Shown here: in pieces, positions 13,616-17,384 of the stretch
Layout: each line of letters opens with the position of its first letter
How positions within the stretch are numbered: the first letter of the stretch is position 1
Assembly: GCA_965248495.1 (NCBI GenBank)
Contig: CBDFJL010000003.1
Span: forward strand, 1,343,966-1,407,965
Direction: 5' to 3'
DNA length: 64,000 bases
Origin: Dehalococcoidia bacterium
Lineage (GTDB): Bacteria > Chloroflexota > Dehalococcoidia > Lucifugimonadales > Australimonadaceae
Notes under the pieces: generated by a model
Told to the model about the DNA's origin: nothing
The model's database searches: none
Seen by the model: only the letters and a program-made list of their open reading frames with translations
Program-made: the position numbers and the translations under genes

Positions 13616-13758
13616 GCATTACGTCCGCCTACAGCGCAGCGTGGCCGGCGCCCCGCCGACGCTGAGCATCGCCGCCGCCGCGCCGTTCGAGCCGAGGATG
13701 GCGAATGCCATCAAGAACCGAGCTTGACACGGCGGTAAGTCAGGACTTACAGTAAGCC

Positions 13759-14070
13759 ATGGCTTACGCAGAAGTATTCACAGCCCTGGCAGACCCAACC
13801 CGCCGGCGCATATTCGAGGCGTTGCGCGAGCAGCCCAAGACCGTGGGTGAATTGGCGGAAGGCCAGCCGGTGAGCAGGCCTGCCGTGTCACAACACCTGA
13901 GGGTGCTCGAGTCCGCGGGGTTGGTGAGTGTTGAGCCGCAAGGTAATCGCCGCTTGTACCTCATCAAGCGCGATGGGTTGGATGATCTGCGGCGTTACCT
14001 GGAAAACTTCTGGTCAGATGCCTTGTCTGCCTATGGCGCTGAGATTACGCGACGTATGAAAAACGAATAG
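13759..14070 (+). CDS. ArsR/SmtB-family transcriptional regulator
   Basis: Winged HTH: ALADPTRRRIFEAL...VGELAEGQPVSRPAVSQHLRVLESAGLV. Confidence 0.85.
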   Translation: MAYAEVFTALADPTRRRIFEALREQPKTVGELAEGQPVSRPAVSQHLRVLESAGLVSVEPQGNRRLYLIKRDGLDDLRRYLENFWSDALSAYGAEITRRMKNE

Positions 14071-14080
14071 GAGAGACACA

Positions 14081-14542
14081 TTGCTCGATCCAATTGTCAG
14101 AACCATTGAGGTGCCTTGCAGCCAAGAGAAGGCATTCGGGGTCTTCGTGAACGAGATGGACAGCTGGTGGCCGCTGGAGAAGTTCTCGGTATCGGCGATG
14201 TATGGAGGGACCACCAAGTCGTTGCGCGTTGACCCGAAACAGGGCGGCAAGATAGTGGAGACGGCCCACGACGACACCGAGCATCTGTGGGGGACGATCA
14301 AGTCATACGACCCGTATGGCTCGTTCAGCATGGACTTTCACATTGCGAAACCCGAACAGCACACTGGATTCACCCTCATCGAAGTGCTGTTTACGGCTCT
14401 TGGCGATGAACGAACACGAGTCGAACTTACCCAGAGCAATTGGGAAGCCCTTGGCGAGTGGGCTGAGATGGTGCAAGGCGGCTACGGCATGGCCTGGGCC
14501 CCGATTTTCGAGCAGGCATACAAATCGGCTTGCGCCGCCTGA
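14081..14542 (+). CDS. SRPBCC/AHSA1 (START-like) domain protein
   Basis: 153 aa. Pattern typical of Aha1-like SRPBCC proteins, which commonly follow ArsR regulators. TTG start. Lower G+C (32/60 for 14101-14160). Confidence 0.65.
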   Translation: MLDPIVRTIEVPCSQEKAFGVFVNEMDSWWPLEKFSVSAMYGGTTKSLRVDPKQGGKIVETAHDDTEHLWGTIKSYDPYGSFSMDFHIAKPEQHTGFTLIEVLFTALGDERTRVELTQSNWEALGEWAEMVQGGYGMAWAPIFEQAYKSACAA

Positions 14543-15065: not shown

Positions 15066-16538
15066 TCAGCGCTTCGATTCGAGCTCCCGCGCCACCATCT
15101 CGGCCACGACGGACGGGTTCGCCTTGCCCTGGGTGATGCGCATGACCTGGCCCACCAGGAACTTCTGCGCACTGTCCTTCCCGCCGTGAAAGTCCTCGAC
15201 AGCCCTCGGGTTCTGGGCGATCGCCTCGGCCACCGCGTCGGCCAGCTCGGAGCTGTCGCTGACCTGCGCCAACCCCAGCTCCTCGACGACTTCGCGAGCG
15301 CCGGCGCCAGTGCGGTACATGGCGCCGAGCGCCTGCTTCGCCTGGGCAGAGCCGAGCGTTCCGTCCTGGATGAGGCGGACCAGGTCGGCCATGTCGCCGG
15401 GCTTGACCGGCTGCTCCAGGATGTCCATATTGTCCTCGTTCAGGTGCCCGGCCAGCTCCGTCGTGGTCCAGTTGGCGACCGCCTTGGCCGCGCCGTTGCT
15501 GACGCCGGGGAAGGACGCCATGGTGTCCTCGAAGAACCGCGCGGTGTTCGGCGTCGCCGTGAGCTGGGCAGCGTCGTAGGCGGAAAGCCCGTACTGGCGC
15601 GCGTACCGCGCCTGCTTTTCGTCGGGCAGCTCAGGCAGCAGCTCGGCGATCTCGGCGATCCACTTGCGCTCGATGTTCAATGGAGGAAGGTCGGGCTCCG
15701 GGAAGTAGCGGTAGTCGTTCGCCTCCTCCTTGGAGCGGTGCGAGACCGTCACGCCGCGCTCCTCGACCCACCCTCGGGTCTCCTGGGGGATGCGCTCGCC
15801 CTTCTCGGCCAGCGCAGTCTGGCGCTCGACCTCATAGAGGAGTGCCCGATACACCGCGCGAAAGCTGTTCATGTTCTTGACCTCGACCTTGGGGCCGAGC
15901 TCGGTGGTGCCCCTCGGGCGGATGCTGACGTTCGCGTCGCAACGGAACGCGCCCTCCTCCATCTGGGCGGTGGATACGCCGAGGTACTGGAGGATGGCGT
16001 GCAGGCTCAGCAGGTACTGGCGTGCCTCCTCGGCCGAGCGCATGTCGGGCTGGCTCACCGTCTCCATAAGCGGTACGCCGGCCCGGTTCACGTCAATCAG
16101 GCTGTAGGTCTCGCCGGTAACCGGGTCTGAGCTGTGCTGGAGCTTCGCGACGTCCTCCTCGAGGTGTACGCGTTCGATCGCGATGCGCTTCGGGCCATCG
16201 TCGGTGACGACCTCGATGTAGCCGCCCCGGCACAGCGGAAGATCGTACTGCGATATCTGATACCCCTTCATGAGGTCGGGGTAAGGGTAGTTCTTGCGGT
16301 CGAACTTCGTGTGCTCGGCGATCTCGCCGTGCAGCGCGAGCCCGGTCATGATGACGGCGCGCACCGCCTCGCGGTTGATGACCGGCAGCGTCCCGGGCAA
16401 GCCGAGGCACACCGGGCAGACGTGGCTGTTGGGTGGGGCCTGTTGGTAGTCGGCGGGGCAGGTGCAGAACATCTTGCTGCGCGTCAGCAATTGGGCATGC
16501 ACCTCAAGCCCGATGACGGTCTCGTACTTGGTGATCAC
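15066..16538 (-). CDS. gatB: Asp/Glu-tRNA amidotransferase subunit B
   Basis: [14 protein letters not shown]-terminus and a C-terminal GatB/YqeY domain. GTG 16538 gives the usual short N-terminus (the ORF track starts at 16586). Confidence 0.9.
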
Positions 16539-16544
16539 GCCTCG

Positions 16545-16574
16545 ATTATACGGGGGAGCAGGCGCGCCTGTCCT
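16545..16574 (-). promoter_or_regulatory. candidate promoter giving a leaderless gatB mRNA
   Basis: On the minus strand: AGGACA (16574-16569), an 18-nt spacer, TATAAT (16550-16545), then 6 nt before GTG 16538. Confidence 0.35.
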
Positions 16575-16839
16575 TTCACAGATCACAGACCGCGCAGCGG
16601 GGCCCTTTCGGCCGCCTTAGGCGGGCTCGAGACAGGCTCTGTGGGTGGGACACATTACGCTCGGGTCCAGCCCAGCGTGTCGTGAGCCGCTCGTTGGTCG
16701 TCGGGTGGCTGCGGCCGGTGACCCGGCCACCGTTCAGGAGGTTGTTCCCGCCAACCCGCCCTGCACGTCGACCGGGAAGGTGTGCGGACGGCCCGCCCGT
16801 CCCGTTACGTCGACTGCTTGGACCGGGCATAGGCCGGGG

Positions 16840-16945
16840 TGGCGTCGCGGCGGACGAAAAGTGGTGCGGTGGGCTAGCGCTGGCGTCGCGGCGGACGAAA
16901 AGTGGTGCGGTGGGCCAGCGCTGGCCTCGCGGCGAACACAAAACA
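16840..16945. repeat. 41-bp tandem repeat, ~2.5 copies
   Basis: TGGCGTCGCGGCGGACGAAAAGTGGTGCGGTGGGC(T/C)AGCGC at 16840-16880 and 16881-16921 (1 mismatch). A degenerate partial third copy begins at 16922. Confidence 0.85.
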
Positions 16946-16979
16946 ACGGCCTTGGCGCCGGGTAGGGGACGCCAAGGCC
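16935..16979 (-). terminator. intrinsic-terminator-like hairpin oriented on the minus strand
   Basis: 10-bp stem GGCCTTGGCG/CGCCAAGGCC (16948-16979). On the minus strand it is followed by GUUGUUUUGUGUU (plus strand 16935-16947). Confidence 0.4.
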
Positions 16980-17143
16980 GCTGGACCTCTCCAGTCAATA
17001 CCGATTAAACAGGCCCCTCTACCGCCTGTCAACTCCGTGTTGACCGGGAGCCCGCAGCCATGCGGCTGCTGTAATGTCGGCCCACCTCCGGCCACGAGCG
17101 AACCACACGCCGCCTCAACCAGCCGCTTTGGGAGGATTTTCGA

Positions 17144-17173
17144 TTGACGCCCCTGTGAGGGGGCGCCTATACT
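17144..17173 (+). promoter_or_regulatory. sigma70-like promoter upstream of tRNA-Thr(UGU)
   Basis: TTGACG (17144-17149), an 18-nt spacer, TATACT (17168-17173). Confidence 0.5.
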
Positions 17174-17179
17174 TCGCTT

Positions 17180-17204
17180 GACGGCCTGCGGGCCGTCGTT
17201 TTTG
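17180..17204 (+). other. hairpin plus U-tract immediately after the predicted start site
   Basis: GACGGCC-tgcg-GGCCGTC followed by GTTTTTG. It overlaps a second TTGACG (17178-17183). Confidence 0.4.
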
Positions 17205-17253
17205 TGTACGCGAATCGCCGGCAGAGCGGGCAGCGGCGGCAAGCGGCCGTGAG

Positions 17254-17325
17254 GCCCGAGTGGCGCAACGGCAGCGCAGCCGATTTGTAATTGGCAGGTT
17301 GTGGGTTCGACTCCCTCCTCGGGCT
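17254..17325 (+). tRNA. tRNA-Thr (anticodon UGU)
   Basis: Hand-folded cloverleaf. Acceptor GCCCGAG/CTCGGGC, D stem GCGC/GCGC, anticodon stem GCCGA/TTGGC with loop TTTGTAA, T loop TTCGACT. One U-U mismatch in the T stem. No encoded CCA. Confidence 0.8.
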
Positions 17326-17384
17326 CCGACGGTCCGCAAACCAGCGGTTCGCGGCTTGACTGAGAAAAGGGCGGGAACAAGGCG

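Follow-up and report, generated by a model that had tools for sequence, protein, structure and literature searches.

A probable divergent control region between gatB and a tRNA-tuf operon in a Dehalococcoidia bacterium, with a candidate short RNA unit upstream of gatB

The gatB/tRNA-Thr(UGU) gap

We have analysed the gap between gatB, on the minus strand, and a tRNA-tuf operon, on the plus strand, in a 64,000-nucleotide stretch of contig CBDFJL010000003.1 of a marine, SAR202-like Dehalococcoidia bacterium (this whole stretch is called the window below, and positions are counted from its first letter). The gap is 715 nt long (16539–17253). In our analysis it appears to be an ordinary divergent control region, enlarged by local duplication and insertion, and it holds three short conserved modules, one of which is a candidate short RNA unit upstream of gatB. 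The gatB coding sequence (15066–16538, minus strand, 490 aa) was delimited by alignment with homologues and by a database protein of 490 aa (Pfam domains GatB_N and GatB_Yqey) that is 100% identical to the window GatB. Its start is the GTG at 16538, where the N-terminus lines up with those of the homologues; an upstream GTG at 16586 was rejected. On the other side, the gene for tRNA-Thr(UGU) (17254–17327, plus strand; found by tRNA call and Rfam) is the first of the operon and is followed by tRNA-Tyr, tRNA-Thr(GGU) and tuf.

The gap is non-coding. In every open reading frame (ORF) of the gap the G+C content was flat over the three codon positions, at about 0.70/0.70/0.70, vs 0.67/0.42/0.90 in gatB, tuf and other long ORFs; the gap ORFs of at least 20 aa were ruled out as genes by this flatness and by translations rich in arginine, proline and glycine. 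A first-pass annotation, made from the sequence of the window, had described a non-coding stretch of about 715 bp from the gatB start with no credible ORF and without the hallmark motifs of RNase P RNA, tmRNA, SRP RNA, T-box or cobalamin riboswitches. The length is upheld by the gatB start at 16538 and the tRNA start at 17254, and the lack of a credible ORF by the codon-position values. As to RNA families, Rfam 15 run on both strands of the gap at E-values up to 10 matched just the three tRNAs; the best score inside the gap itself, for Pseudomon-groES, was 22 bits vs a gathering score of 50. At the gathering threshold the whole window yielded five tRNAs and nothing else.

Relatives of GatB were found in Chloroflexota/Dehalococcoidia in all cases, SAR202 bacteria included. 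Syntenic loci (given L numbers here) were fetched via GatB homologues with identities of 88% (L081, the closest relative), 80% (L082 and L083), 74% (L084–L086), 72% (L087) and 68% (L095 and L096); L002 and L003 (63–64%) and L004 were added to these. The order tuf, tRNAs, spacer, gatB, secG, with the tRNA-tuf genes and the gatB-secG genes pointing away from the spacer, is kept in L081, L082, L084–L087 and L096. The spacer between tRNA-Thr(UGU) and gatB measures from 384 to about 1200 nt in L081–L086, and its gene content differs among relatives: a small membrane protein, a thioredoxin/NHL-repeat protein, a PAP2-like protein or an ORF of 127 aa. Alignment of this spacer from relatives, a check proposed in the first-pass annotation, was run, and three conserved modules emerged; between the window and L081, conservation is confined to the surroundings of these modules.

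Three conserved modules

One of the modules is the candidate RNA unit (16935–16996, minus strand, about 55–62 nt), recognized by its homologous copies, fold z-score and covariation. It is preceded by a promoter-like block, P1 (17004–17032, minus strand), made of TTGACA (17032–17027), 17 nt and TTTAAT (17009–17004), with the spacing conserved in relatives; a further 7 nt lead from TTTAAT to G 16996, where the invariant GACTGGAGAGGTC (16996–16984) begins. The unit has three parts: this invariant 5′ segment, GACUGGAGAGGUC as RNA; a 16-bp hairpin with an 8-nt loop (16983–16944); and a U-run, UUUUGUGUU (16943–16935). Twelve nucleotides of the 5′ segment, GACUGGAGAGGU, are the same in all 9 distinct sequences and are unpaired in the centroid fold. 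The hairpin, with 11 G-C pairs among its 16 and followed by TTTTGTGTT, folds at −35.1 kcal/mol (z = −4.24); it has the stable G+C-rich stem-loop of an intrinsic terminator and is the strongest terminator-like site in the scanned 60 kb of the window.

Copies of the unit are present in the window, L081, L082/L083, L002, L003 and L096, all found via GatB, and a diverged form occurs in L095. All intact copies found lie upstream of gatB and in its sense; their conserved 5′ segment is 77–188 nt away from the gatB start codon in the relatives, but 458 nt in the window. A DNA pattern, run without restriction against metagenomes, gave 7 loci, 7 of 7 upstream of gatB and in gatB sense; the pattern fixed TTGACA and the first 12 nt, and these loci are no independent proof that those bases are invariant. 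In the GatB tree, all loci carrying the unit fall into one clade and occur in both of its sub-branches.

The hairpin, of 15–16 bp, was predicted independently by RNAalifold. Covariation in relatives, which the first-pass annotation had proposed to look for, was assessed on the 9 distinct sequences. In their alignment 93% of the cells are paired (slid registers pair 34–55%), three pairs are altered on both sides (AU/GC, CG/UA and GU/CG), and the covariation score was matched by 1 of 500 column shuffles. Many pairs are G-U and therefore valid in the gatB sense only. The covariance model scored 61–79 bits in sense vs 12–24 bits in antisense across the copies (79 vs 24 bits for the window copy), and L096, left out of model building, scored 41 bits in sense. 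Sequence conservation, hairpin covariation, strand specificity and exclusive linkage to gatB are thus direct observations on the P1 unit. The earlier suggestion that the minus-strand hairpin and its U-run mark a short minus-strand transcription unit gains support from this conservation with compensatory changes, as a prediction from sequence.

Two pairings are open to nucleotides 13–16 of the unit, a 5-bp hairpin at the 5′ end and the extended stem, and the terminator is kept in both. In L096 a double change (G to C and U to G) leaves the extended stem intact and disrupts the small CUGGA/UCCAG hairpin, and for this reason we prefer a model of one long hairpin after a 13-nt free 5′ segment. The small hairpin, which the first-pass annotation had marked as CTGGA/TCCAG at 16981–16994, is present in the window and fits most of the sequences; being broken in L096, it was rejected as a conserved helix and is subsumed in the single 16-bp hairpin.

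In 7 loci (the window, L081, L082, L002, L003, L096 and L095), TTGAC(A/G) precedes the conserved 5′ segment by 30–31 nt; apart from the window, these loci came from GatB searches, and none was selected for the box. This −35 box, TTGACA or TTGACG, is separated from the −10 box by a spacer that is unconserved in sequence and, in length, agrees with the 17 ± 1 nt of a sigma-70-type promoter, and the −10 boxes among the copies read TTTAAT, TTCAAT, TCTAAT, TCTACT, TTCACT, TTAACT and CACACT. P1 is absent from the promoter-scan list of the window because its −10 box has T or C for the consensus A at position 2. A sigma-54 reading of the −10 region was rejected, as the GG-N10-GC spacing is not present.

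The gatB-proximal module is a promoter, P2 (16545–16574, minus strand), with AGGACA (16574–16569), 18 nt and TATAAT (16550–16545), matching the consensus at 10 of 12 positions. TATAAT ends 6 nt ahead of the GTG at 16538. A TANNNT some 10 nt ahead of the start codon is the mark of a leaderless gene (PMC3160421), and since TATAAT sits 6 nt before the start codon, this rule implies that the gatB mRNA of the window is probably leaderless or nearly so. The window, every clade relative fetched and many further Dehalococcoidia loci have a TATAMT 6–10 nt ahead of the gatB start, often after TGn. The resemblance to TANNNT leaderless genes (PMC3160421), seen here and in most fetched Dehalococcoidia as TATAAT or TATACT with frequent upstream TGn, covers P2 only and leaves the upstream RNA unit unexplained. 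A side observation concerns the gatB start regions of L001–L096, of which a large share have TGnTATACT or TATAAT 6–10 nt before the start codon; this suggests that leaderless gatB mRNA with an extended −10 promoter may be widespread in the class.

On the other side of the gap, the third module opens the tRNA-tuf operon. Its promoter, TTGACG-18 nt-TATACT (17144–17173, plus strand), matches the consensus at 10 of 12 positions and is kept in all clade relatives; the strong plus-strand promoter of the first-pass annotation is upheld here by conservation. The promoter scan of the region gave 2 promoter-like sites vs 0.2 expected. A terminator-shaped hairpin, GACGGCC-TGCG-GGCCGTC followed by GTTTTTGTGT (17179–17208, plus strand), lies at the 5′ end of the operon leader, which runs on past it to 17253. 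Promoter, leader hairpin and T-run were found in every relative carrying the tRNA cluster. The pattern YGGCC-loop-GGYCG followed by a run of at least 4 T gave 17 matches in 0.89 Mb (in the window, L002, L003, L081–L088 and L091–L096), and 17 of 17 are situated between a promoter and the tRNA cluster, 5–17 nt downstream of TTGAC(G/T)-N17/18-TATAMT and, where the first tRNA could be placed, 21–53 nt from the cluster. The stem is conserved between copies and the loop is variable. This leader hairpin is more widely conserved than the gatB-upstream unit.

Upstream of tRNA-Tyr in L002 and L091, ARAGORN calls no tRNA-Thr(UGU), yet the promoter and leader hairpin are present; the first tRNA may have diverged, been replaced or been missed. 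The tails of the two divergent hairpins in the window, 16932–16943 and 17200–17211, read each in its own sense as TTTTGTGTTCGC and TTTTGTGTACGC, are identical at 11 of 12 positions and so form an inverted repeat. The two tails resemble each other only loosely in L081, and the near-identity in the window may for this reason be due to chance or local conversion.

Tandem repeat, hairpins and spacer filler

What first strikes the eye in the gap is a tandem array with a 41-nt unit (16840–16942), found with Tandem Repeats Finder (TRF) and by repeat search. It comprises two full copies (40 of 41 positions identical) and a partial third copy (16922–16942) that overlaps the terminator U-run, i.e. 2.3–2.5 copies in total, 96–98% identical. 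TRF reports 16840–16934 with period 41, 2.3 copies, 96% matches and a score of 176, which makes this the strongest repeat in the window by far. The repeat that the first-pass annotation had drawn at 16840–16945 is present as placed, with one mismatch, but is not conserved in L081. Only one equivalent of about 21 nt, TTTGTATCCGCCGCGACGCCA, exists in L081, L088 and L092, in L081 directly after the terminator tail; L092 and L094 have another tandem duplication in the same spacer, of 10 nt, with GACGTCCTGC occurring twice. Of the ancestral junctions, the 5′ one survives in the copy next to the terminator and the 3′ one in the copy farthest from it. Because the junctions are kept as a local tandem duplication produces them, the array appears to be a recent slippage duplication of the sequence just after the terminator. 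Its head-to-tail, near-identical copies, varying in number among close relatives, are those of a variable-number tandem repeat formed by slippage; nothing distinctive sets the array apart, and it is an ordinary example of the kind.

Next to the array, 16575–16839 is window-specific, non-conserved filler that is absent from L081 and includes a nested hairpin (16767–16815) flanked by an 8-bp direct repeat, GTCGACGT. Altogether L081 has no counterpart to two extra 41-nt copies and about 290 nt (16575–16839, nested hairpin included). Comparisons with the fetched loci, the rest of the 64-kb window and plasmid and phage collections gave no similarity to the window-specific DNA, and codon periodicity is absent from the filler. 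The fold of the 405 nt that separate gatB from the terminator is no more stable than that of shuffled sequence (z = +0.84 on the minus strand and −1.56 on the plus strand). The spacer between the divergent promoters (17033–17143) has patchy conservation, with L081 only, and holds the short hairpins GTCAAC/GTTGAC and GCAGCC/GGCTGC.

Perfect 6-bp hairpins number 10 in the region, vs 4.1 ± 2.5 in dinucleotide shuffles, and 12 of 300 shuffles reach 10. The two terminator-shaped hairpins account for four of the ten; without these two terminators, the excess falls within about one standard deviation of the shuffle mean. The repeat, the two terminator-shaped hairpins and the promoter are above chance; the nested hairpin and the other short hairpins are not. 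The hairpins that the first-pass annotation had listed are all in the sequence, but they have fared unequally. The nested hairpin at 16767–16815, present as placed, is at chance level and missing from L081. Those at 17009–17030 and 17053–17068 are not conserved even in L081, and GTCAAC/GTTGAC (17029–17045) is partly conserved only because one of its arms is the −35 box of P1. The comparison with a relative whose GatB is 88% identical told some 150 nt of conserved signal apart from some 500 nt of filler, and the conspicuous repeats and hairpins of this G+C-rich gap turned out to be mostly noise.

Two spacer observations on relatives may be added. At GatB identity of 80%, a 1.2-kb spacer contains the 127-aa ORF, which has no Pfam family (L082 4121–4504 and L083 351–734, both on the minus strand); searches with tblastn and tblastx found no counterpart in the window. 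In L004, two paralogous small membrane-protein ORFs (...LVEQFLNGFSFTLGALAATGL...) between 560 and 1050 flank an inverted, degenerate copy of the P1 unit, an arrangement that suggests a local rearrangement in that genome.

A candidate attenuator and alternative readings

The explanation that we favour, with confidence a little above even, is that the gap serves gatB on the minus strand and the tRNA-Thr/Tyr/Thr-tuf operon on the plus strand as a divergent control region, with the three short conserved modules as its functional content. The remainder, i.e. the 41-mer copies, the nested hairpin and the adjoining 290 nt or so, is within the same explanation best seen as growth without function of the spacer that lies between the P1 terminator and P2 and is prone to slippage.

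For the P1 unit the mechanism we prefer is that of a cis-acting promoter-proximal leader or attenuator; the unit lies upstream of gatB and in the same sense, as an attenuator does. RNA polymerase would start at P1, near 16996, and most transcripts would stop at the hairpin and U-run (16935–16943), giving an RNA of about 60 nt. The fraction reading through would pass over P2, where it might yield additional, leadered gatB transcripts or else block the leaderless promoter by occlusion. P2 would be the gatB promoter proper, producing a leaderless mRNA, and whatever sets the read-through fraction would recognize the invariant CUGGAGAGG segment. On the other strand, the transcript of the tRNA-tuf operon would open with its conserved hairpin and U-run. 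The proposal that the leader acts by supplementing or occluding P2 follows from gatB having its own leaderless promoter downstream; because the gene is probably leaderless, a switch in its 5′ untranslated region (UTR) would have no place. Transcription from P1, termination and any regulatory effect are what we infer from the sequences compared above.

Intrinsic (Rho-independent) terminators serve as promoter-proximal attenuators in the ampC and pyrBI leaders of Escherichia coli. The P1 unit resembles these in having a G+C-rich hairpin and U-run tens of nucleotides after a (predicted) promoter, upstream of a gene and in its sense, but differs in lacking a leader peptide, a conserved alternative pairing and a known effector, and in a U-run that is weak in several relatives. 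Moreover, as gatB has its own leaderless promoter, control would be exerted through occlusion or added transcripts and not through a classical 5′ UTR switch. In some Firmicutes gatCAB is controlled by T-box leaders, likewise cis-acting RNAs with a terminator upstream of an amidotransferase gene; these exceed 200 nt, whereas the P1 unit has about 60 nt, lacks a specifier loop and a T-box sequence and has no Rfam T-box match at E-values up to 10.

Three more specific devices were considered for the unit and rejected. A leader peptide after the Shine–Dalgarno-like GGAGAGG could use a TTG 10 nt downstream in the window and L081, but a start codon is missing at that point from L082 and the L002 group, and the frames differ; no conserved small ORF follows GGAGAGG in the aligned P1 unit sequences. 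A T-box-like reading, with UGGA pairing with the tRNA 3′ end and the 3′ strand UCCAG as its mimic, failed on the variation of that strand (UCUGG, UUCAG, UCCAC), in addition to the missing T-box match. Between the 5′ segment and the start region of gatB, L002 can form just 4 bp (GGAG:CUCC), and the window lacks this pairing.

Several observations weigh against the attenuator. None of the P1 copies has TAnnnT, as T or C replaces the consensus A at position 2, with the T at position 6 kept; P1 may be weak, may be read by another sigma factor or may be no promoter. The U-run is good in the window, L081 and L003 (GUUUAUUUU), but poor in L002 (GUUGCGGUUAA), L082 and L090 and nearly absent in L096 (GGUGUUCGCC); since it is poor or absent in several relatives, the hairpin may have been conserved for something other than termination. 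We found no antiterminator, i.e. no alternative pairing kept across the copies of the unit. To these points should be added the bases fixed in the metagenome pattern, as stated above. The unit has also been lost within its own clade, in L084–L087, where a small membrane-protein gene abuts gatB, and in L005 and L007, where the intergenic space is just about 80 nt; the copy in L004 is inverted and degenerate. On account of this distribution within the clade, the unit appears to be old within the clade yet dispensable.

The main rival to an attenuator is a small RNA gene of the seed-plus-terminator kind, i.e. an independent, trans-acting RNA of about 60 nt that would pair with mRNAs elsewhere, with its adjacency to gatB reflecting conserved gene order only. 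We hold this to be possible, though on the improbable side. Minimal small RNAs of this type, about 60–80 nt long, are known from enterobacteria (RybB and OmrA/B), and the P1 unit is like them in its own predicted promoter, invariant 5′ end, terminator hairpin with compensatory changes, U-tail and length. The architecture indeed fits: a conserved single-stranded stretch of 12–13 nt that could be a seed, then a variable hairpin with compensatory changes and a U-rich tail that form its own terminator. The window terminator is very strong (16 bp, −32 to −35 kcal/mol, UUUUGUGUU), and read-through into gatB would for that reason be expected to be rare; gatB has a leaderless promoter of its own; and the unit is lost where intergenic space is compacted, as often happens to accessory small-RNA genes. 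Yet all intact copies share position and orientation relative to gatB over GatB identities from 63% to 100%, and the linkage persists despite rearranged neighbours, with the tRNA cluster adjacent or 3 kb away. Several copies (L096, L002) lack a usable U-run, and a seed duplex scan of the 64-kb window gave no outlier but the unit's own antisense, the best non-self site, at −20 kcal/mol, lying within the continuum. RybB and OmrA/B belong to another phylum and have no sequence relationship to the P1 unit, for which no target was found in the window and whose linkage to one gene is strict. That the conserved block is instead a DNA-level operator for a transcription factor controlling gatB, with the hairpin incidental, would account for 12–13 bp that are invariant rather than co-varying and for a weak dyad, GAC-N7-GTC. 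The dyad has just 3 bp per half-site, however, and the compensatory and G-U-type changes of the adjoining hairpin fit only an RNA in gatB sense; to an operator we give next to no credence.

Two further readings concern the gap outside the modules. The first-pass annotation had seen in the whole gap, with its 41-mer array and hairpins, one or more larger structured RNAs or a protein-binding array. One small uncharacterised RNA candidate, the P1 unit, has come out of this proposal. For the rest, a palindrome of 12–14 bp, GCCAGCGCTGGC, does recur at each 41-mer copy junction, 41 bp apart, and perfect short hairpins occur at about twice their frequency in shuffled sequence. The array and the adjoining 290 nt are, however, missing from L081 and match nothing else; their predicted folding energy is that of shuffles, Rfam is empty up to an E-value of 10, and the hairpin excess falls to within about one standard deviation when the two terminators are set aside. 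By its lack of conservation this proposal is largely refuted, and we regard it as very improbable. It is also unlikely, if less extremely so, that the window-specific 290 nt or so (16575–16839) are the scar of a mobile element or a decayed gene. Genes are gained and lost here, as the differing spacer content of relatives attests, and the 8-bp direct repeat GTCGACGT around the nested hairpin might be taken for the trace of an insertion. Against a scar, tblastn with the spacer proteins of relatives (small membrane protein, NHL/thioredoxin protein and 127-aa ORF) revealed no remnant in the window, no frame has residual codon periodicity, and there is neither a second copy in the 64-kb window nor a plasmid or phage match. 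A mobile element, a miniature inverted-repeat transposable element (MITE) or a repeat of the repetitive extragenic palindromic (REP) type was rejected, as the direct repeat is the only such mark and no other copy exists in the 64-kb window.

Returning to the attenuator, we may ask what it would mean. If real, the P1 RNA would be a candidate regulatory RNA for an uncultivated, abundant marine lineage, for which, to our knowledge, almost no RNA biology has been described. It has no Rfam match, and it would be new only as a further case of known kinds, i.e. a promoter-proximal terminated leader or a small RNA. The unit would also offer a concrete case of a leaderless gene controlled from upstream of its own promoter, and the companion hairpin in the tRNA-tuf leader suggests that the design has been reused. 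One may go further and imagine the gatB-upstream RNA and the tRNA-tuf leader hairpin as two arms of one clade-specific attenuation system that tunes translation-apparatus genes in marine SAR202-like Dehalococcoidia, with gatB governed by a terminator-gated upstream promoter, whose read-through would occlude or supplement the leaderless promoter, and with CUGGAGAGG as the sensor site. This extension is speculative, and we think it rather unlikely.

A last observation lies on the far side of gatB. At about 14000–14500 of the window the G+C content falls to 0.52–0.60, vs 0.65–0.70 nearby. At the matching spot relatives have a gene with a SAM_HAT domain after secG, where the window has short fragmentary ORFs only; a promoter-like site (13724–13753) and a 17-nt tandem repeat (13735–13767) are close by. 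This low-G+C stretch could be the product of gene decay or of a foreign insertion.

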